Virus record (IMG/VR): IMGVR_UViG_2563366974_000010
Length of the DNA stretch: 64,000 nt
Source of the DNA: a virus
Taxonomy: Duplodnaviria > Heunggongvirae > Uroviricota > Caudoviricetes
Strand: one strand, 5' to 3'
Position numbers and translations under genes: made by a program. This document shows positions 11,934 to 40,070 of this stretch, piece by piece (position 1 is the first letter of the stretch; each line of letters opens with the position of its first letter). The notes under the pieces are model-generated. The model did no database searches. It was not told the DNA's origin and saw only the letters and a program-made list of their open reading frames with translations.

Positions 11934-12335
11934 ATGTCTGAGACCTTCACTATCGTAGGCGTTGGTCTTACATCGTCATCAGTCGGTGTAACCTTTGCCA
12001 CGCTGTTTCCGGAGGCGACTCCAGCAGTGATGCTCGGATCACTCGCCGGAACTGCGCTATACGTTCTGACCTCAGATCCCCATCAACTCTGGAAGCAGGC
12101 TATCTTTGCGCTGATATCGTTTATCAGTGGCGTGTTCTTCTCCGTACCCATGGCGAAAATCATGGCCGGAATCATCAACACGCCGTTAAGCCTGATGAAG
12201 CCACCAGCCAGCATTGAGGTATCGCCAGCTGTCGGTGCAATTGTCACTGCTTCCATTTCCGTGGCAGTCCTGCTGCGTATTCTCCGCAAATCCAAAAGCG
12301 GGAAGATGCCGGGGCTGGGGGAGGAAGATAAATGA
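11934..12335 (+). CDS. Holin-like membrane protein (133 aa)
   Basis: Multiple hydrophobic segments; first gene of lysis cassette. Confidence 0.5.
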   Translation: MSETFTIVGVGLTSSSVGVTFATLFPEATPAVMLGSLAGTALYVLTSDPHQLWKQAIFALISFISGVFFSVPMAKIMAGIINTPLSLMKPPASIEVSPAVGAIVTASISVAVLLRILRKSKSGKMPGLGEEDK

Positions 12336-12607
12336 CATGGCAGCTTCTTCTGATGGATGCAAACGCCATAGTTTGCCTGTTAATCATGGTCAGGCTGATG
12401 TTTTTCCGGAAAGAGGGAAAGCGTCATCGCCTGAGTGTCGCGGTGCTGGCCTACCTGGTCATACTTGCCGCCGGATTCAACGCCTTCAACATTCTGCTCG
12501 GCCACTACGTTCAGGTTAACCTTGGCGACCTGCTGCTGAACTCCGTCATATGCATGGCGGTGTGGCTGGCGCGTGGGAACCTGGCGAAGGTCGTTATAAC
12601 GGAGTAG
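12332..12607 (+). CDS. Small membrane protein (91 aa), holin/antiholin-like
   Basis: Hydrophobic helices; immediately upstream of endolysin. Confidence 0.5.
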   Translation: MTWQLLLMDANAIVCLLIMVRLMFFRKEGKRHRLSVAVLAYLVILAAGFNAFNILLGHYVQVNLGDLLLNSVICMAVWLARGNLAKVVITE

Positions 12608-12610
12608 TCC

Positions 12611-13051
12611 ATGCAAACCAGCGAAAAGGGCATTGCCCTAATCAAAGAATTCGAAGGCTGTAGACTCACTGCTTACCAGGACAGCGTGGGCGTATGGACG
12701 ATCGGCTATGGCTGGACTCAACCTGTGGATGGAAAACCAATCCGCGCCGGGATGACTATCAAGCAGGAAACAGCAGAACGTCTGCTGAAGACCGGGCTGG
12801 TCAGCTATGAAAACGACGTGTCCCGCCTGGTTAAAGTCGGCTTGACTCAGGGGCAATTCGACGCCCTGGTGTCGTTCACGTATAACCTCGGCGCTCGGTC
12901 ATTGTCGACATCGACACTCCTGCGAAAACTCAATGCCGGTGATTACGCTGGTGCTGCTGATGAGTTCCCGCGCTGGAACAAAGCAGGTGGCAAAGTCCTG
13001 AACGGGCTAACCCGTCGGCGTGAGGCGGAGCGCGCTCTGTTTCTGTCGTGA
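12611..13051 (+). CDS. Endolysin, GH24 (T4-lysozyme-like) family
   Basis: Catalytic block EFEGCRLTAYQD...GVWTIGYG; ends with RREAERALF. Confidence 0.85.
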   Translation: MQTSEKGIALIKEFEGCRLTAYQDSVGVWTIGYGWTQPVDGKPIRAGMTIKQETAERLLKTGLVSYENDVSRLVKVGLTQGQFDALVSFTYNLGARSLSTSTLLRKLNAGDYAGAADEFPRWNKAGGKVLNGLTRRREAERALFLS

Positions 13052-14854: not shown

Positions 14855-15487
14855 ATGGCAAGCGACGAAGAGAAAAGGCCACTGCCGAGTTCAGCATTCG
14901 TCGAAGAGTTCGCGCCATACACAAGACTGATTCCAGCTGATGGCGTGTGGCAGTGGGTACAAGCGAACATCATTGCCGAATCAGGCCACCTGCATAACCC
15001 CGACCATATTCATCTGGCAGATGCTGATATCGGCTTCCTTTGGGCTGCTAATGCTTTCTCAAAGAAAGGGCGCACTGTTCTCGGGCAGGCCGAAGAAGTT
15101 ATGTTTCGCGCTGGCGGGTGGCAAAAAGCCCGCATGGAGCAGCAGATGTATGAATGGTTCGGGCATAAGCCGGATTACATCATTACCCTTGCTGGCGACT
15201 TCTGCCTTAAGTGCTCTGATCTGGAATTCTGCGCCCTGATTGAACATGAGCTTTACCACATCGCCCAAGAGGTTGATGAGTTCAGCGCTCCCAAGTTCTA
15301 CAGAGACAGTGGTTTGCCAAAACTTTGCATGCGTGGTCATGACGTCGAAGAGTTTATCGGCGTGGTTCGCAGATACGGCGCAAGCTCTGATGTGCAGGAA
15401 TTGGTAGACGCTGCAAACAACCCCGCCGAAGTGGCGAAAATTAACATAGCCAGAGCATGCGGAACGTGCATGCTGAAGCTGGCTTAA
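14855..15487 (+). CDS. Putative zinc metallopeptidase (HExxH)
   Basis: Motif IEHELYHIAQ = HExxH. Confidence 0.5.
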   Translation: MASDEEKRPLPSSAFVEEFAPYTRLIPADGVWQWVQANIIAESGHLHNPDHIHLADADIGFLWAANAFSKKGRTVLGQAEEVMFRAGGWQKARMEQQMYEWFGHKPDYIITLAGDFCLKCSDLEFCALIEHELYHIAQEVDEFSAPKFYRDSGLPKLCMRGHDVEEFIGVVRRYGASSDVQELVDAANNPAEVAKINIARACGTCMLKLA

Positions 15488-17560: not shown

Positions 17561-18910
17561 ATGAATGACAAATTAACTCTCGCCGTCAACCATGCGTTGA
17601 ACGATGCGCGGATGGCTCGCGCCCGTATGGGGCTGATGGCGCCTACAATGGGGCTGGACAACAAGCGCCACTCTGCATGGTGCGAGTATGGATTCCCTGA
17701 GCAGGTAACCTACGAAAACCTTTATGCCCTGTACCGACGCGGTGGTATTGCCCACGGCGCAGTAGAGAAACTGGTGGGCAAGTGCTGGCAGACTAACCCG
17801 GAAATCATCGAGGGTGATCAGGCAGACAAAAAGCGCAAAGAAACCGCCTGGGAGAAAAAGGCCAAACAGGTATTCACCAACCGATTCTGGCGCTCATTCT
17901 CTGAGGCCGATCGCCGTCGTCTGGTGGGCCGTTATGCTGGCATCCTTCTGCACGTCCGCGATGAAAAAGACTGGAACCTTCCGGTAACCAAAGGGCGAGG
18001 TCTTCAGAAAATATCGGTGGCGTGGGCAGGATCGCTTACGGTGAGCGAGTGGGACACTGGCCTGAACTCGAAGACGTACGGCCAGCCTCAGATGTGGCAG
18101 TACGCCGAACGCTTGCCGAATGGTTCAAGTCGCCGCGTCAATATCCACCCCGATCGCGTTTTCATCCTTGGTGATTACTCAGACGATGCTATTGGCTTCC
18201 TTGAGCCAGCTTATAACGCCTTTGTAAGCCTGGAGAAGGTAGAGGGTGGATCCGGCGAGTCATTCCTGAAGAACGCCGCGCGCCAGCTTAATGTCAACTT
18301 TGAGAAGGAAATCGACTTCAACAATCTTGCGTCACTTTATGGCGTGAGCATTGACGAGTTGCAGGATAAGTTTAACGAAGTTGCCGGGGAAATGAACCGT
18401 GGCAACGATGTTTTGATGACAACCCAAGGGGCCACGGTCACACCGCTGGTGACTGCTGTAGCTGATCCTTCAGCGACCTATAACGTCAACCTGCAAACGG
18501 CTGCCGCCGGTGTTGATATCCCGACGCGCATTCTGGTTGGTAATCAGCAGGCCGAGCGCTCCAGCACCGAAGACCAGAAATACTTTAATGCTCGTTGTCA
18601 GTCGCGACGCGTAGACCTCTCTTTCGAAATAGAGGACTTCTGCGACAAGCTTATCGATCTACAAATCGTAGACTCAGTCAGTCAGAAGGCTGTTATCTGG
18701 GATGACCTTAACGAACAGACCGGTACTGAGAAGCTCACTAACGCCAAGACCATGGGCGAAATTAACCAGACCATGCAGGGCAGCGGCGAAGAGCCAGCGT
18801 TCAGCCGTGAAGAGATTCGTACAGCTGCGGGTTATGACAATGACGACGAAGAGCCGTTAGGAGAAGAGGATGGCGACGAACAAGACGAAGCCACCAATTC
18901 TACCGCGTAA
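17561..18910 (+). CDS. Putative portal protein
   Basis: About 450 aa, acidic C-terminus, follows terminase; by position and size. Confidence 0.55.
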   Translation: MNDKLTLAVNHALNDARMARARMGLMAPTMGLDNKRHSAWCEYGFPEQVTYENLYALYRRGGIAHGAVEKLVGKCWQTNPEIIEGDQADKKRKETAWEKKAKQVFTNRFWRSFSEADRRRLVGRYAGILLHVRDEKDWNLPVTKGRGLQKISVAWAGSLTVSEWDTGLNSKTYGQPQMWQYAERLPNGSSRRVNIHPDRVFILGDYSDDAIGFLEPAYNAFVSLEKVEGGSGESFLKNAARQLNVNFEKEIDFNNLASLYGVSIDELQDKFNEVAGEMNRGNDVLMTTQGATVTPLVTAVADPSATYNVNLQTAAAGVDIPTRILVGNQQAERSSTEDQKYFNARCQSRRVDLSFEIEDFCDKLIDLQIVDSVSQKAVIWDDLNEQTGTEKLTNAKTMGEINQTMQGSGEEPAFSREEIRTAAGYDNDDEEPLGEEDGDEQDEATNSTA

Positions 18911-25901: not shown

Positions 25902-26570
25902 ATGACCGCTTTAACCGATATTGGCGAACTCTCTATCAGCGACAGCCGCGCAGGCGGTAAAGACTACCTGCTCAGGCCCTCATTCGAGGCTATGACGAGG
26001 ATCGGCGCTCCAGAGGAGATTGTGCAGGCGTATGCCACCATCCACGGCAAAGACGTCGCACAGCTGGTTGAGGTGTGCGCTGGCATGCTGGGGCGCTTTC
26101 CTGAATGGCTATCACCTTCATTCAACCGTGCAGCCGAGAAGCTGTTATCGACGTGCATGCTTGTGCTACAGGCGTGCTGTGAGGACGACCTGACGCCAAT
26201 GATCGGCGAATGGAAAGGATGGCGGCATTGTGTCGTCTACCGCCCGGGCCAGATGCCTAAGAACGACATTATCGTACTGGCGCAGCACCTCATGCAGCAC
26301 GGCATCGTCGGAAAGGCAAAGGTTCGCCAGTTGCAGCGCCACGAGACTGGCGAGCGCACTACGGAGTTCAAAGCCTTCGACTACATCAGCGCAGCACGTA
26401 GTCACTTTGGAATGAACCGCGCCGAAGCCTCTCAGTTAACGATGACCGAATTTCAGATGCTGCTGGCGGCGAAATACCCCGATCAGAAAGGTTTCACTCG
26501 CGATGAGTATGACAGCATCGCCGACGAATACCTGGCTAAACAGGCTGCACGTAGAAAGAAAGCCCAATAA
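25902..26570 (+). CDS. Putative tail assembly chaperone
   Basis: Position between tail tube and tape measure genes. Confidence 0.4.
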   Translation: MTALTDIGELSISDSRAGGKDYLLRPSFEAMTRIGAPEEIVQAYATIHGKDVAQLVEVCAGMLGRFPEWLSPSFNRAAEKLLSTCMLVLQACCEDDLTPMIGEWKGWRHCVVYRPGQMPKNDIIVLAQHLMQHGIVGKAKVRQLQRHETGERTTEFKAFDYISAARSHFGMNRAEASQLTMTEFQMLLAAKYPDQKGFTRDEYDSIADEYLAKQAARRKKAQ

Positions 26571-26583
26571 ATTGGGCTCTATT

Positions 26584-26796
26584 TTAGAAAACCAACGTCA
26601 AATGCTCTCTACCAATCCGGGCTAAATCACTGACGTTCATTGGTACTCGGCCCCTAACGTCGATTTTAATGTGACCACCGGCATTAGCTACGGTTCTTAT
26701 TAAGTCAGAAATATTCATTGGAATTGCACAATCGGCAGTAATTTCTATATGAACTCCAGTTCTGGCTATATCACTAATATTCATTGGTAACGGCAT
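26584..26796 (-). CDS. Small protein (70 aa) with three tandem PMN(I/V)SD repeats, antisense to tail module
   Basis: GGAGGA RBS; repeats PMNISDIAR / PMNISDLIR / PMNVSDLAR; AT-rich. Confidence 0.4.
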   Translation of the reverse strand: MPLPMNISDIARTGVHIEITADCAIPMNISDLIRTVANAGGHIKIDVRGRVPMNVSDLARIGREHLTLVF

Positions 26797-26898
26797 AAAT
26801 CCTCCATTGTTTTAAAAACAGCAATCATTTCAGCACGTTCATTACTTTTCTATTGTGATGAGCCTTAAGATTCAGCGAAATACCATCGTCAGTACTAT

Positions 26899-29841
26899 TT
26901 GGAGAATGACATGGCTGGTGAGAAGAACGCCGGTAGCATCGTTTATGAAATCAGCGCTGACGTTGAGCCGCTGCTGCAGGGCGGGAAGCAGGCCATTGAT
27001 GCTCTGGATAAATTGGATGCGGCAGCTCAGCAGTCCGGCAAGGGAATGGATAACCTCGATCAAAGCACGTCTCAAACCGGATCCGCGTTTACTGAACTGG
27101 CTGGTTATGCCAACTCGATGGATAACCAACTGCGCAAGCTTAACACCAATGTGAGCGGGATCGCCCGCGCAATGGAAGAGGCCCGCAGCGGGACCGGTGG
27201 CGCCAACAGTGAGTTCAATCGCGCTGAATCCATCATCGAGGCGCTGGGTAACCAACTCGCTGTGCTGGACGAAGCACAGGAGAATGGCGCTCGCAGTGCT
27301 GCCGTTCTGGCTGCCCAGTTGCGCGCCGGGTCAAAAGCGACCGATGAAGAGAAGCAGAAGATCGGCGAATTGACCGGCCGACTGTATGACATGAAAACAG
27401 GCGTGGAAACCGGAGCGAAAGGAACTGGAGCCTGGAAAAACAGCATGCAACAGGCTGGGTACCAGGTTCAGGACTTTATCATTCAGGTTCAGGGCGGCCA
27501 GTCCGCGCTGGTAGCGTTTGCACAGCAGGGCTCTCAACTTGCCGGTGCATTCGGGCCGGGTGGTGCGGTAATTGGTTCTGTTATCGCACTGAGTTCTGTC
27601 CTGGCCGGTGTGCTCATCACTTCTCTGAATGGCGGCAAGAACGCCATGGATGCGCTGAAAGACGCAGCCGAGGCGATGGACAAGGTCATTACCATTTCCC
27701 AAAATGGCGTGGCCGCTCTGTCTGATAAATACGCATTGCTCGCGAAAACGAATACCGAAGTAGCAACGCTGATGCGTAACCAGGCACTGCTGGAATACAA
27801 CGAGGCTATCAACAAGATACCGAAGGCGATTAGCGATGCTTCGAGCTCGTTACTTTCCTTCGGCGATAAGGCACTTTCTGCATTTTCCGGTGGTTATGCG
27901 TCAGTCGATGGCTTTAACGATCGTCTGGCTACTCTTGAAATCACCACGGATAACTATTCCGAGGCGATGAAGCAGGCATACGGTGCCGGGCAGGCATTCC
28001 AGGCGACCGCAAACAGCATTGGCAACACCGTCGGAGCCGTTGCCGACAAGTTCGGGATATCAGAGCAGAAAGCCTTCGAGTTCAGCAAGCAACTTTCCGA
28101 TATTGCCAAAAACCCAACACCGGAAGCCCTGCAGCGACTTGCTACTGAACTGCAGAACACTCAGAGCTCAACCGAGAAAGGGCAGACTGCGCTCACGGCA
28201 TTTGTTGGGAAACTGGTTGAGTTATCACGTGAAGCCGTCATTGCTAAAGGTAATGTTGCTGCTCTGAAGCAGGAAACGGATAACCTTACCGCCGGGCAGA
28301 AGAACCTTATCAAGCAGTCAGAGCGTAACCTTGCGCTGTCAAAACTGCAGGGTGAGGCTCGCGCCCGACTTCAGGCGCAATATGCCGCTGAAGATGCGGG
28401 GTTTGCAAAAGATGATCCGCACGCCAAACAAATGGAAAATGACGCTGCCGCTACGTACAAAAATACGCAGGCGCAGAAGACACTTCAGTCCGAGCAGAAG
28501 AAAGGTGCTTCCCAGGCTGATTCTATTGCTCAGAAACTGGCGAACCTGAAACAGCAATCAGAGCTCGCTGCCGACTCAACAAGCAAGCTGAGCCGGGAAC
28601 AAGCGATCCTGAATGCTCAGCAGTCACTTGGTAAAGGCGCAACGAAGGAGCAGATCGCGCTGGCTGGGCAGTACGCCGCAACAAAATGGGACACTGCTAA
28701 CGCCATTAAAGCGCAAGCGGCAGCTGAGAAGCTTCTCCCTGAGGCGCGTGAGAATGCCAGTTACAAGCAGGATGTAGAGGATCTGAACACCGCTCTGGCT
28801 GCGAAGAAAATCAGTCAGGAGCAGTTCAATCAGACTTCCGAGCGACTGGAGGCAACTCACCAGGCAAACCTCGCCAAAATCCGCGCCCAGCAGGCTGTGA
28901 CGCCACAGCAGGATGCAGTCGGTGGAGTTGACCCTGTTCAGCAACTTGCTAACGAGAACGCTCGCAAGCTAGCGCTCATTCAGGCATTCGAACAGCAGGG
29001 GCTTATCACTCACCAGAATGCGCTCATGCTGCGCGCTACAGCTGACAAGGAGTATGAGCAGGCTCGCATCGCTGCCCAATGGGAGATCTTCCGCAATCAG
29101 AGCGCAGGTAATGAAGCACTGGCGGCGTCCTTCGATGCACTGGCCGGTAATGCGTCCAACGCCTTAACCGGCATCATTACCGGGAGCATGTCAGCGTCTG
29201 ATGCCCTGCGCTCGATCGGGAATACCGTACTGAACAGCCTCATCAACACCTTCGTTCAGATGGGCGTTGAGTGGGTGAAGTCAGCCATCATGGGGCAGAC
29301 GGCCACCACTGCTGCAGTTGCAGCATCGACCACTGCTCAGGCGGCAGGCATTGCCACTACCACGGCGACGTCTACCGCGGCGGCGGCGGCTACGACAGCG
29401 GCCTGGACTCCGGCAGCCATTATGTCATCCATCGCCTCATTCGGTGGTGCGGTGGCGATCGGCATCGGAGCTATGGCTGGCATCCTGGCGCTGTCTGGCA
29501 AGCGAAAGAACGGCGGGCCCGTTTCGGCTGGCGGAATGTACCAGGTCGGCGAAGGCGGGATGCCTGAGATTTACCAGGCCAGCACCGGAAAGCAGTACAT
29601 GATACCGGGCGACAACGGTCGAGTGATCAGCAATAAGGACATGGCTTCAGGAGGTGGTGGCGGGGTGGTAATCAACATCCAGAACTACACGTCATCCTCG
29701 GTCGATGCGCAAGCTGGCACGGATGCCAATGGGGGCGTGACCGTCGATGTCATCGTCGCTGACCTGAATAATGGCGGGCCGATTAGCAGCGGTATAACCA
29801 GCAACTTCAATGTCAAACGCAAGCCAAGGGGGCAGGGCTGA
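26899..29841 (+). CDS. Tail tape measure protein
   Basis: 980 aa, Ala/Gln-rich helical, Gly/Ala-rich TM-like segments near C-terminus. Confidence 0.85.
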   Translation: MENDMAGEKNAGSIVYEISADVEPLLQGGKQAIDALDKLDAAAQQSGKGMDNLDQSTSQTGSAFTELAGYANSMDNQLRKLNTNVSGIARAMEEARSGTGGANSEFNRAESIIEALGNQLAVLDEAQENGARSAAVLAAQLRAGSKATDEEKQKIGELTGRLYDMKTGVETGAKGTGAWKNSMQQAGYQVQDFIIQVQGGQSALVAFAQQGSQLAGAFGPGGAVIGSVIALSSVLAGVLITSLNGGKNAMDALKDAAEAMDKVITISQNGVAALSDKYALLAKTNTEVATLMRNQALLEYNEAINKIPKAISDASSSLLSFGDKALSAFSGGYASVDGFNDRLATLEITTDNYSEAMKQAYGAGQAFQATANSIGNTVGAVADKFGISEQKAFEFSKQLSDIAKNPTPEALQRLATELQNTQSSTEKGQTALTAFVGKLVELSREAVIAKGNVAALKQETDNLTAGQKNLIKQSERNLALSKLQGEARARLQAQYAAEDAGFAKDDPHAKQMENDAAATYKNTQAQKTLQSEQKKGASQADSIAQKLANLKQQSELAADSTSKLSREQAILNAQQSLGKGATKEQIALAGQYAATKWDTANAIKAQAAAEKLLPEARENASYKQDVEDLNTALAAKKISQEQFNQTSERLEATHQANLAKIRAQQAVTPQQDAVGGVDPVQQLANENARKLALIQAFEQQGLITHQNALMLRATADKEYEQARIAAQWEIFRNQSAGNEALAASFDALAGNASNALTGIITGSMSASDALRSIGNTVLNSLINTFVQMGVEWVKSAIMGQTATTAAVAASTTAQAAGIATTTATSTAAAAATTAAWTPAAIMSSIASFGGAVAIGIGAMAGILALSGKRKNGGPVSAGGMYQVGEGGMPEIYQASTGKQYMIPGDNGRVISNKDMASGGGGGVVINIQNYTSSSVDAQAGTDANGGVTVDVIVADLNNGGPISSGITSNFNVKRKPRGQG

Positions 29842-36328: not shown

Positions 36329-37414
36329 CTAAATAAAACGCCTTGTAAATTTTGCTATTTTTTTCTCAATCAACGAGTGAACTAAGCACCCTGTAATAAT
36401 GCTAAATAACACATAAAAAGCAAGGTACATAAATACACTGGTATGCAGATGTAGTTCCAGTCGCTCCCACCAGTGCGCAAGCAATGATGTAAATAAGCCA
36501 TGTATGAGGTATATGCAGTACGAAGCATTACCTAAGTAAACTAATATATTCGGAGTCTTTACTTTACCCTCAAGGCTAATTGTTGCCCATACGATGTAAA
36601 AAGAAAACGCTCCCCATATAAGAGGTCTGTGCCATAAGTTCCCTACATACGTAGTTATTAAATATTTTTCAAGGATATAAAATAAAGGCAACGAACAAAT
36701 CAATATAGCAGTAGCAAGTTTGGCGTTAAGAAATATTTTTGATATGTACAGTCTGTACATAAACATACCCAAAGCAAACTCAATCATTACTGGCTGAGAG
36801 ATTACCTCAATTGGAGGGAAATACGCTTTAATAAAATTTGCGGCATGCTCGTTTTTAACTAAAATGTTACAAACGATAACTATTGTCACAAATGAAATTT
36901 CTATTTTCTCTATTTTTGAAACGCCAATTGCAATAAAAATAGCGAAGATAGCATAAAAGAAAAATTCAAACTGAAGAGTCCACCCAACACCTAGTATTGG
37001 TCCCTTATCCCAATGGGTGAACGTTATGCTCCTAAAAAAATACACTAAATCTATTTTATCAGATGGAAACCAAAAAAGTAACGGTCTTGCTGGGGAGGTG
37101 ATTTGGTATGAAACCAAATAAGAGACATAAACAGCACATGCCGTAAGGATAATATATAAAGGAAGTATCCTAACCAATCTTCTTAAAAAGAACTTTGCCG
37201 CTGAAATATTAAATGGCCCATCAGCTTTTTTACCTCCATAAGCAATAAAAGGCATTATAAACCCACTAATTATAAAAAATATATCAACACCTATACCACC
37301 AAGGCCTGACATCCTTATTCCATACATTACAATCTCAGAATGTGCAATGACGACAATCAATGCGGCAAAGAAGCGCAATACCTGTATGTTATAAATTGTT
37401 TGTTTGTTATCCAT
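36329..37414 (-). CDS. Membrane acyltransferase (acyltransferase-3 / OafA-Oac-like)
   Basis: N-terminal VLRFFAALIVVIAHS motif, about 10 TM helices, AT-rich gene. Confidence 0.75.
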   Translation of the reverse strand: MDNKQTIYNIQVLRFFAALIVVIAHSEIVMYGIRMSGLGGIGVDIFFIISGFIMPFIAYGGKKADGPFNISAAKFFLRRLVRILPLYIILTACAVYVSYLVSYQITSPARPLLFWFPSDKIDLVYFFRSITFTHWDKGPILGVGWTLQFEFFFYAIFAIFIAIGVSKIEKIEISFVTIVIVCNILVKNEHAANFIKAYFPPIEVISQPVMIEFALGMFMYRLYISKIFLNAKLATAILICSLPLFYILEKYLITTYVGNLWHRPLIWGAFSFYIVWATISLEGKVKTPNILVYLGNASYCIYLIHGLFTSLLAHWWERLELHLHTSVFMYLAFYVLFSIITGCLVHSLIEKKIAKFTRRFI

Positions 37415-37728
37415 TTTTTAATAATTGGTAATTACGTGCTTAAGGTTCCAAAAGATTCCAGTTATTCACTGGGGCTGTAAGATTTTAACATCAATGCTTG
37501 ATGGTTGACACACTGAATGCAGTTTAATATTTAATAACAACAAAATAATAACCAACTGTAATTAGCATGCTATAAATAACGTTGAAGATTACATCTCATG
37601 CTTCTATATCGCAGTAAAGTCAACATAGATTAACTTCTGCTTTTCCATCCACAACTTTATCTCAAGCTACAACAACAAGTTGCATGCTAACTATTTCACG
37701 GTACTTGATGTGCGCTCTGTAAGAGTAG

Positions 37729-37748
37729 TACTGTATGTATAAACAGTA
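37729..37748 (+). promoter_or_regulatory. LexA (SOS) box TACTGTATGTATAAACAGTA
   Basis: CTGT-N8-ACAG palindrome 19 nt upstream of the UmuD-prime-like start. Confidence 0.75.
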
Positions 37749-37766
37749 TTTATGGGAGTGCAAATC

Positions 37767-38138
37767 ATGGAGTCCCAATTCCCCGCAGCAGATTATGCAG
37801 TAGAGCGTATCTCACTGGACGGCAGGATCATTACAAGCCCAGCGTCGACATATTTGATGCTGGCAGCAGAGACTATCTGGCGCGCAGGCATTATGAAAGA
37901 TGCAATGCTTGTCGTGGACAGCGCTGTACATCCCATTGATGGTTCTATTATCGTATGCCAGTTCAACGGTGAACTTCGTCTTAAGCGCTTGAGGTTAGCT
38001 CCTGCTCGATGCCTTGAAGATCTTAACTATCCAGACCGGCATCAGATGCTGACGTCTGAAACTCTCATTATGGGAGTTGTGACATATATCATCAACGATG
38101 CCCGTAGTGGTGAGTTTGACGACAGCCCGGTGATCTGA
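37767..38138 (+). CDS. UmuD-prime-like protein (truncated UmuD homologue lacking cleavage site)
   Basis: S24-fold C-terminal region with LKRL Lys motif; PAADY motif; no N-terminal extension with Cys-Gly cleavage site; canonical GDSM appears replaced (ETIW). Confidence 0.65.
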
Positions 38139-39406
38139 TGTTTGCCCTGGTTGATGTAAATTCATTTTATGCGAGTTGTGAGACGGTATTCAGGCCTGAC
38201 CTGAAAGGAAAACCGGTTGTTGTGCTGTCGAATAACGATGGCTGCGTGATTGCGCGCTCTGCTGAAGCGAAACTGCTCGGCGTCAAAATGGGTGACCCGT
38301 ACTTCAAACAGAAAGACCTGTTCACGCGGTGCGGAGTTGTCTGCTTCAGCAGCAATTACGAGCTCTATGCGGACATGTCCAACCGGGTGATGACAACGCT
38401 CGAAGAGATGTCGCCGCGCTGCGAAATATACTCAATAGACGAGGCTTTCTGTGACCTTACCGGGGTTCGTAATTGCAGAGTTCTGGAAGACTTTGGACAG
38501 GAACTAAAGGACGCTGTATACCGTAACACGCGGCTTGCTGTCGGCGTTGGGATAGGGCAGACAAAGACACTGGCGAAACTGGCAAATCATGCTGCAAAAC
38601 GATGGCAGCACAAGACAGGTGGAGTTGTTGACCTGTCTAACGTCGAGCGTCAGCGCAAACTGATGGCAGCACTTCCTGTTGATGAGACATGGGGAGTGGG
38701 CCGGCGCATTACCAAAAAGCTCGAGGCTATGGGGATCAAGACGGTTCTCGACCTGGCTGATACTGACATACGATTTATTCGTAAACATTTTAATGTGGTT
38801 TTGGAAAGGACTGTGCGTGAGCTGCGAGGAGAGCAGTGTCTAGAACTGGAAGAGTTTGCACCCGTAAAACAAGAGATTGTATGTAGCCGCTCATTCGGCG
38901 AACGAGTCACTGAATACGATGCAATGCGGCAGGCTATCTGTAGCTACGCGTCGCGAGCAGCGGAGAAGTTGCGTGGAGAGCATCAGTATTGCCGGTTTAT
39001 CTCTGCGTTCGTCAAAACGTCACCATTCGCGCTTAATGAGCCATATTACGGTAACAGCGCATCGGTGAAGTTGCTGACACCGACGCAAGATAGCCGGGAC
39101 ATCATTGCGGCGGCCACTAAGTGCCTTGATGCTATATGGAAAGATGGTCACCGATACCAGAAAGCGGGCGTGATGCTCGGAGACTTCTTCAGTCAGGGCG
39201 TCGCACAACTTAACCTGTTTGATGACAATGCACCTCGCGTCGGAAGTGAGAAGCTGATGGAAGTTCTGGATCAACTCAACACTAAAGGCGGGAGAGGTAC
39301 GCTGTATTTTGCAGGGCAGGGCATCCAGCAGCAGTGGGCGATGAAACGAGAAATGCTTTCGCCGCGGTACACAACAAGATTTTCCGATCTGCTGCGCGTT
39401 AAGTAA
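38138..39406 (+). CDS. umuC: Y-family DNA polymerase UmuC (Pol V catalytic subunit)
   Basis: N-terminus [15 protein letters not shown] and overall UmuC-like sequence. Confidence 0.9.
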
Positions 39407-40070
39407 CGAGTTCAATCAACTCCGGCCCCTGATTTTTCACATTACCAACGGAGCGCGTCACGGCGTGCCAGATAAACTTGTCGGCGGAAACCGCTCCGTC
39501 GGCTGCTATCTCTTCCGCTTCTTTCCCGCCTATATCCTGGCGCATCCACTCACGGGCCGCTTCAGGTGACAGAACAAGCGGCCGTCTGTCGTGAATGTCG
39601 ACCAGTCCTTTATCAGCTGCAGATGTCACTATCAGAAAGCCCTCAGCGTCATCACCGCGCTCAAATGGCGTGCTGCCTATAGCTGCCATAAAGATTGGCT
39701 GACCGTCGGCACGGTGAATGAAGTAGGGCTGTTTCTTGTCGCCTTCCTTTTTCCATTCGAACCAGCCATCAGCAAAGCAGATCGCCCGGCCATGTTGCCA
39801 GAGAGGTTTGAACATTCGGCTGGTGGCTGCGGTTTCGACGCGTGAGTTAATCAGCGGCGGTTTATCCCACCACCCGGGAGCGTATCCCCAGAACACTGGA
39901 TCGAGATGCAGCTGCTCGTCGCGTTCGCTCAGCAGCAGAACTTTGGTGCCTGGCGCAACGTTGTAGCGTCCAATCGGCTCCGGGTCGTACGCGATGTCGC
40001 GATCGGCTTCATCCGCCAGGTAAGCCAGGTATTCTTCACGCGTTTGAGCTTGTGCAAAACGTCCACACAT
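39399..40070 (-). CDS. yedK: SOS-response-associated peptidase (SRAP / YedK-like)
   Basis: Starts MCGRF (catalytic Cys2 hallmark of SRAP/HMCES proteins); about 223 aa. Confidence 0.85.

Follow-up and report, generated by a model that had tools for sequence, protein, structure and literature searches.

A small antisense gene inserted in the tail module of a lambdoid prophage encodes a member of an uncharacterised three-repeat protein family

INTRODUCTION

How does a short minus-strand gene come to lie between two tail genes that are both read from the plus strand, and what might its product be doing there? This question is raised by an open reading frame (ORF) of 70 codons in IMG/VR record IMGVR_UViG_2563366974_000010, a tailed-phage sequence of 64,000 nucleotides that is called the window here in its full length. 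In this study we show that the interval around the ORF is a horizontally acquired moron cassette, read against the late operon of a lambdoid prophage. Judging from its conservation, the ORF is a real gene whose product is under purifying selection. As far as database sequences can tell, the family to which this product belongs is sparse and uncharacterised, comprises proteins of 66-75 amino acids (aa), and travels as cargo of prophages and other mobile elements. What the protein does for its carrier can be approached by analogy, and we weigh several possible roles below.

RESULTS

A conserved 70-aa ORF

A first-pass annotation of the letters had described a small antisense gene inside the tail module, AT-rich, preceded by a GGAGGA ribosome-binding site (RBS), and encoding three tandem PMN(I/V)SD repeats of a family that it did not recognise. 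These claims held when we followed them up. The ORF was confirmed exactly, with its ATG start, and the GGAGGA motif lies directly upstream of it. The ORF and the DNA upstream of it have a G+C content of 34-40%, compared with 55-60% in the flanks. The two basic features of the gene are:

26584..26796, minus strand: ORF of 70 codons plus stop with an ATG start, encoding MPLPMNISDIARTGVHIEITADCAIPMNISDLIRTVANAGGHIKIDVRGRVPMNVSDLARIGREHLTLVF
26800..26805, minus strand: Shine-Dalgarno sequence GGAGGA, 3-4 nt 5' of the ATG, kept in the homologous cassettes L028 and L005 (L numbers are our handles for the loci compared)

The predicted product has a mass of 7.6 kDa and a pI of 6.8 and carries neither a signal peptide nor a transmembrane segment, the latter because its top Kyte-Doolittle mean over 19 residues is 0.96. 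Across 26400..27000 the window matches a lambdoid prophage of E. coli 20A24 (NZ_CP147044.1) at 100% identity, and in that record the annotated gene coordinates match those of the window and RefSeq lists the identical ORF as hypothetical protein WP_001514209.1. Comparison with homologous cassettes whose proteins are 97%, 90% and 54% identical gave dN/dS values of 0.11, 0.21 and 0.29, respectively.

When the protein was compared with family databases, only PHROG 23044 matched, and it did so over its full length (E=6.2e-52, 174.7 bits, residues 1-70 on profile positions 1-70 of 70). This PHROG is the same family as the 70-aa protein, but it is listed as 'unknown function' and carries no functional information. 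There was no match to the 70-aa protein in Pfam or NCBIfam, none in PADLOC-DB 2.0 for the window protein or two homologues at E<=0.1, and a profile search of PDB sequences returned noise only (E>=0.18). We collected about 30 homologous clusters of 66-75 aa with the architecture of the window protein. A profile search contributed 25 clusters from E. coli relatives, Serratia, Vibrio, Burkholderia, Herbaspirillum and metagenomes, and all those that bear a source name are labelled hypothetical or uncharacterised. When 1.8 billion representatives were searched exhaustively with HMMER, 13 proteins of 66-73 aa proved to share this architecture. Ranked at the top of the HMMER output are also long repeat proteins of 396-1749 aa (P0002, P0004, P0014 and P0016), which score via many short stretches; we judged these scores to be an accumulation across unrelated beta-rich repeats, not homology, and set the proteins aside.

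The family is thinly spread in other collections. In IMG/VR we found three copies that are identical and a fourth that has diverged, and the cassette is carried by 1 of 5426 complete E. coli genomes. Searching 50,697 deposited phage genomes by tblastn with four members of the family gave no match, where at 70 aa such a search misses relatives below ~50% identity, and nothing was found when the single window protein was searched in GTDB species representatives. A full-text literature search with the accession, the PHROG identifier and the motif found no paper.

The interval is an inserted cassette at a cargo hotspot

The gene lies in the following setting:

25902..26570, plus strand: DUF6246 gene, the left flank (Pfam PF19759, E=3e-72), directly after the tail tube gene
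26557..26900 (boundaries approximate), strand not assigned: inserted moron cassette of ~340 bp, in place of the ~21 bp by which DUF6246 is connected to the tape measure gene in relatives
26911..29841, plus strand: tail tape measure gene, the right flank (PHROG 1538, E=1e-224), with its ATG at 26911 and the RBS GGAGAA at 26901

The boundaries of the cassette were read from an alignment with E. coli XJ55, in which the slot is empty, and Enterobacter phage ENT1, which has another insert. In XJ55 and in Enterobacter phage CobraSix the gap between the DUF6246 and tape measure genes measures 12 bp, and the DUF6246 and tail tube proteins of both are 94-96% identical to those of the window. We regard the cassette as a phage moron, in the sense of Juhala and Hendrix (PMC3594210), because it is inserted relative to these relatives (~340 bp against a 12-bp gap), because its base composition is foreign to that of its surroundings, and because it brings its own terminator-like hairpin, which XJ55 lacks.

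The same junction is filled differently in different phages and prophages, and it is a cargo hotspot with at least six occupancy states. It is empty in XJ55 (L002) and CobraSix (L042), and elsewhere it holds the 70-aa family. In ENT1 it holds an unrelated 98-aa ORF, antisense too and without a family match (L003, 1687-1983). In E. coli A14 there is an NYN-domain gene (L040, 3426-3986), in E. coli 23CRST004 there are two hypothetical genes (L041, 3240-3976), and in Serratia prophages there is an island of ~3.5 kb (L008, 4242-8084). Among the products of the Serratia island are lipoproteins, a small membrane protein and proteins of 160 and 301 aa, the latter of which weakly matches Peptidase_C13 (caspase-like).

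Two further loci deserve mention. In E. coli 30EVA1 (L039, 3172-3954) RefSeq leaves a gap of 783 bp between DUF6246 and a late-starting tape measure coding sequence; the out-of-frame ORF directly after DUF6246 suggests a tape measure 5' end that is frameshifted or mis-annotated, rather than cargo. In a metagenomic relative (L005, 5145-5876; L006, 4202-4933) the first ~30 tape measure residues are fused to T1RH-like_C, the C-terminal part of a type I restriction R subunit, and two UvrD-helicase-type genes come after the fusion. What appears to be a defence or helicase cassette has thus truncated this prophage just past the small gene.

The plus strand of the interval

The first-pass annotation had placed the small gene between a putative tail chaperone gene and the tape measure gene, where it would stand in place of the G-T frameshift extension that is normally encoded there. 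The position itself stands, in that the DUF6246 gene occupies the place of a tail assembly chaperone gene by coming right after the tail tube gene. The replacement does not: the two genes are just 12 bp apart in close relatives, which leaves no space for an extension there, so nothing was displaced, and the cassette has been added without taking the place of a chaperone extension. The annotation had also called for a look at a programmed frameshift signal on the plus strand, and here we found stops in all three frames of 26571..26898 and no usable slippery site. Over the 3' half of DUF6246 the -1 frame runs into stops at 26399, 26504, 26510, 26537 and 26552, and the sole X_XXY_YYZ heptamer, CCCGGGC at 26243, leads to a stop at 26258, five codons on. 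An RNA element was considered as well and rejected, with no Rfam family at threshold in the interval and a sub-threshold match on the terminator hairpin only.

Three repeats and a predicted alpha/beta fold

The three repeats start with PMNISD at residue 4, PMNISD at residue 26 and PMNVSD at residue 52, giving periods of 22 and 26 aa, and they are 40-50% identical in pairwise comparison. A 6-mer that occurs three times, with one mismatch allowed, was seen in 0 of 2000 shuffles of the protein. The repeats and their predicted secondary structure are:

26725..26790, minus strand: repeat 1, residues 3-24, LPMNISDIARTG-VHIEITADCA, with a short helix at 7-11 and then a strand at 16-19
26647..26724, minus strand: repeat 2, residues 25-50, IPMNISDLIRTVANAGGHIKIDVRGR, with a helix at 29-39, a strand at 42-46 and the nearly invariant H42
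26587..26646, minus strand: repeat 3, residues 51-70, VPMNVSDLARIGREHLTLVF, with a helix at 55-65, a strand at 66-69, the invariant T67 and the nearly invariant G62

AlphaFold2 models built from alignments of 15 and of 31 sequences arrived at one topology, H-E-H-E-H-E (H, helix; E, strand), at moderate confidence (pLDDT 77 and 80, pTM 0.61 and 0.64). The protein is thus predicted to be a soluble cytoplasmic mini alpha/beta repeat of the form (helix-strand)x3. Foldseek searches against PDB and against BFVD each gave a best E of 0.04 and returned generic parallel alpha/beta fragments only. The structural matches of the 70-aa protein to short alpha/beta solenoids such as leucine-rich repeat (LRR) proteins, and to (beta-alpha) barrel fragments, are likewise weak and generic. 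We rejected an assignment as an LRR protein or solenoid, since there is no LxxLxLxxN pattern, no Pfam LRR match and a total of just three units.

The family alignment shows G14 and T67 to be invariant and A11, besides H42 and G62, to be nearly so. For each unit the family consensus reads h-P-x-(T/N/D)-h-x-x-L-A-R-h-G-x-(H/N)-h-(T/D/E)-I. On the models, PMN(I/V)SD would be the N-cap motif of each helix, comprising Pro, a variable residue, an Asn/Thr N-cap, a hydrophobic residue and then polar or acidic residues; the Gly would terminate the helix and the His/Asn would start each strand.

Within the family the repeats vary together. Co-variation was computed on 17 members with mutual identity below 60%. 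Over a 12-residue motif, repeats within one protein are 53% identical, compared with 38% for the same repeat across proteins. For the two residues that follow the Pro the difference is larger, 65% within a protein versus 16% across proteins, and 0 of 5000 permutations reached the observed value. We found at least eight motif states (PMN, PIN, PID/PFD, PQT, PDT, PET, APT and HPxx), each present in two or three repeats per protein. In the window ORF the Ser of the motif is encoded by AGT, TCT and AGT; as these codons differ, the likeness of the repeats is kept at the protein level and not by gene conversion alone. It might be possible that the three loops pack against one another, or else that they form one self-similar surface, for example toward a periodic or multimeric partner.

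Genomic contexts of the family

We examined 16 distinct genomic contexts of family members. Half of them (8/16) lie inside virion modules of tailed phages, and there the small gene is antisense to the surrounding structural genes in 8 of 8 cases. Five of these eight members occupy the DUF6246/tape measure slot: the window, the truncated prophage L005, Serratia (L007-L010), the IMG/VR relative L044, and L035, whose protein is only 33% identical to that of the window. The remaining three are found between lambda-like K and I genes (L017), in a P22-like ejection-protein gene cluster (L019), and beside a weak tape measure match in a module whose genes include a sheath-like one (L045). Identity to the window in L035 and Serratia is 44-65% for the structural proteins on either side and 33-40% for the small protein. 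This suggests a long residence in the slot with a faster divergence of the small protein, with replacement by transfer as the alternative.

The other 8 of the 16 contexts are cargo positions outside virion modules. Three of them are at the end of filamentous (Zot/Rep_trans) prophages in Vibrio. These Vibrio members (L014-L016, L037-L038, L047) sit in a variable region beside matP, where the companions differ by strain and are either a 73-aa protein or a 138-aa plus a 254-aa protein. In V. alginolyticus the gene follows an integrase gene, and a weak HEPN match lies downstream; in Burkholderia it is beside a resolvase gene and a DUF6338 gene. Three Herbaspirillum contigs (L020, 4890-7368; L021; L022) share the order TIR protein, 72-aa member and 260-aa protein, and in L020 this trio is near ThsB_TIR and SLATT genes and near a prophage terminase and portal. 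It could be that the trio works as a multi-gene system, with the small protein as one of its components. The 260-aa protein has N-terminal hydrophobic segments. In addition, metagenome contig L031 has a family member near a Schlafen-like gene, and in L033 a member lies in an integrase island with an ankyrin protein. Downstream genes of ~250-273 aa occur in Herbaspirillum, V. alginolyticus, V. cholerae and a metagenome contig, but they are mutually dissimilar, and we rejected them as a recurrent partner.

Candidate promoter, palindrome and hairpin

The following candidate control elements accompany the ORF:

26824..26852, minus strand: best candidate promoter, with -35 TAGAAA at 26847..26852, a 17-nt spacer and an extended -10 TGaAATGAT at 26824..26832
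26808..26820, minus strand: perfect palindrome TGTTTT-T-AAAACA between the candidate -10 and the Shine-Dalgarno sequence, kept in the diverged L028 and L005 cassettes
26552..26580, strand not assigned: terminator-like hairpin across the stop codon of DUF6246, its tails T-rich on both strands

The candidate promoter ends 27 nt before the ATG and is weak, reaching 8 of 12 in a relaxed scan. Its -10 block, GTGCTGAAATGAT, is kept in three diverged cassettes and its -35 is variable. The palindrome is possibly an operator or an element of the 5' untranslated region. On the minus-strand RNA the hairpin (26559..26580) has a 9-bp stem (GAGCCCAAU/AUUGGGCUU) followed by UCUUUCU; it folds with -11.5 kcal/mol and a z of -2.8 on the minus strand, and with a z of -3.0 on the plus strand. 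At this hairpin a terminator scan flagged the plus-strand site only.

A gene for a Q-family antiterminator lies at 12170..12670, upstream of the late operon. From this gene through the tail genes, all annotated late genes are on the plus strand except the 70-aa ORF and 15308..15481. The latter is a second small antisense gene (57 aa, hypothetical protein WP_155404554.1) between the lysis and terminase genes, at a location that corresponds to the tai site in phi80 and the tab site in JBD26.

DISCUSSION

A possible role in the lysogen

The arrangement suggests how the small gene might be used. In a repressed prophage it would be transcribed from its own weak candidate promoter. During lytic growth the Q-antiterminated late polymerase would read through the hairpin and meet the small gene head-on, and collision together with antisense RNA would turn it off. 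Such a switch would follow the scheme described for tai of phi80 (PMC11364771), and the gene layout agrees with that of tab in JBD26 (PMC10884400). As there is no catalytic signature, the protein would act through binding another macromolecule, and the binding surface might be the three like-sequenced strand-to-helix loops, which are diversified between homologues and alike within one protein.

The most likely benefit, which we hold with somewhat less than even confidence, would be that the lysogen is protected from other phages, either by exclusion or by interference with their assembly. This idea draws on analogy with the known proteins gp15, Tab and Tai, compared at the end of this text, and on the defence-type neighbours of family members elsewhere (TIR, ThsB_TIR, SLATT, weak HEPN and Schlafen). 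A broader proposal is more tentative: this unstudied family of ~70-aa mini alpha/beta proteins might consist of stand-alone binders in phage-phage or phage-host conflict, be it in defence by exclusion or assembly interference or in anti-defence, with a specificity set by the loops and a switch operated by late transcription.

Several points weigh against such protection. Since there is neither a PADLOC match nor homology to Tab, Tai, Ati or gp15, the argument for defence comes entirely from position and analogy. The predicted fold is generic and of moderate confidence, and a strict sigma-70 scan found no promoter. Morons are known to have diverse, host-directed functions (PMC3594210). We found no neighbour gene conserved across the contexts, and the protein therefore seems to act alone. 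Finally, the family is also present on tail-less filamentous prophages, which argues that it does not depend on its carrier's own tail.

Alternative explanations

A first alternative is that the protein serves counter-defence, as a small inhibitor or signal sponge that neutralises a host immune system. The protein is small, predicted to be soluble, and fast-diverging, and its family is found on several types of phage and island. The Herbaspirillum member between the TIR and 260-aa proteins in three contigs, near ThsB_TIR and SLATT, fits this idea, and a ligand site might be lined by the His/Asn and Thr/Asp ladders that are conserved along the strands. However, known anti-defence genes are usually expressed early in infection, and the gene opposes the late operon in all eight virion-module cases, an arrangement favouring expression in the lysogen. 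The structure searches recognised no ligand-binding fold, and there is no consistent pairing with any single defence family. We consider counter-defence unlikely.

It is similarly doubtful that the product is a mini-protein of lysogenic conversion or regulation, which would act on the physiology of the host, for instance by binding one of its enzymes or regulators, with no direct role in conflict between phages. The moron architecture and the diversity of host-directed moron functions cited above would suit such a role, and so would the members on filamentous prophages and on islands with integrase or resolvase genes. On the other hand, we detected no DNA-binding, secretion or membrane features, and the sparse carriage (the single genome among 5426 of E. 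coli) together with fast divergence suits conflict better than housekeeping.

A role in the assembly of the phage's own tail, for example by standing in for the T portion of a G-T chaperone or by assisting the tape measure protein as a cofactor, is very improbable. The gene adjoins the tape measure gene, and five diverged members (33-97% identity) are found in the same slot of phages with structural proteins that are 44-65% identical or closer. Yet it is absent from relatives with 94-96% identical flanking proteins, including CobraSix, an isolated phage; it is antisense to the late operon, and members are found in tail-less filamentous prophages and non-phage islands.

The last alternative, a spurious ORF beside a true plus-strand feature such as a frameshift extension, a small RNA or a spacer, could appeal to the shortness and AT-richness of the ORF and to its lack of a strong promoter, but it is extremely improbable given the plus-strand stops in every frame, the lack of an Rfam family at threshold, dN/dS values below 0.3 and full-length homologues of 23-54% identity with the same three-repeat architecture in Enterobacterales, Vibrio, Burkholderia and Herbaspirillum.

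Significance and other cargo of the window

What is new here is the uncharacterised repeat family; the kind of moron and its slot were already known, and current understanding is not overturned. The term moron was coined for gene 15 of HK97, which occupies the corresponding slot, after the tail chaperone genes and before the tape measure gene (PMC3594210), and our comparison shows that this junction is a genuine cargo hotspot in the present lineage. The 70-aa family appears to have stayed in the slot through deep divergence of its host phages, and within the slot it is always antisense. Small antisense morons of late operons, namely Tab and Tai, have lately turned out to be anti-phage systems, ones that go unnoticed by standard defence finders, and the 70-aa family is a cheap and testable candidate of this sort. 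As a compact alpha/beta repeat predicted to have three units that vary in concert, it might also be of interest for the evolution of repeat proteins and as a minimal binding scaffold.

The right end of the prophage before yciB (window 36329..40070) carries further cargo, namely an antisense acyltransferase gene, genes for an S24 peptidase and a Y-family polymerase (an umuDC-like pair), and a gene for an SOS-response-associated peptidase. A 449-aa product in the portal position (17561..18910, plus strand) bears the RefSeq name 'anti-CBASS protein Acb1 family protein', which may be a naming artefact or reflect a real fusion.

Comparison with known systems

Three known systems come closest to the 70-aa gene. 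The gp15 protein of HK97 excludes superinfecting phages (Cumby et al. 2012, summarised in PMC3594210). Like the window gene, it is a small moron in the slot between chaperone and tape measure genes, has its own terminator and is absent from relatives. It differs in being encoded on the sense strand and in being a 62-aa inner-membrane protein of the YebO type, whereas the window protein is antisense, predicted to be soluble, and of alpha/beta type. Homology to gp15/YebO was rejected, with an hhalign probability of 0.2% and no transmembrane helix in the window protein.

Tab (gp31 of Pseudomonas phage JBD26, 83 aa) is expressed from the prophage and blocks tail (tape measure) assembly of another phage (PMC10884400). 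It shares with the 70-aa protein its small size, the lack of a known domain, and the state of a moron inside a late operon; tab has its own promoter and is on the opposite strand in the GenBank record. However, tab lies between terminase genes and not in the tail module, and it is paired with an anti-Tab gene, of which no counterpart is evident for the 70-aa ORF. Homology was rejected here too (hhalign probability 0.1%).

In the Tai/Ati system of phi80 (orf63/orf64) the defence gene tai is antisense in a Q-dependent late operon, described as a 'noncontiguous operon' (PMC11364771). Tai is on in the lysogen and countered in the lytic cycle, and it is found at moron loci of several kinds of mobile element (PMC11364771). 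The resemblance lies in an antisense gene that is embedded in a Q-dependent late operon; the differences are that TaiEcA has 204 aa and is encoded upstream of the packaging genes. Against TaiEcA and AtiEcA the hhalign probabilities were 0.3% and 0.04%, and homology was rejected. Although the 70-aa family is thus a member of none of these families, by analogy it may work in the way that gp15, Tab and Tai do.

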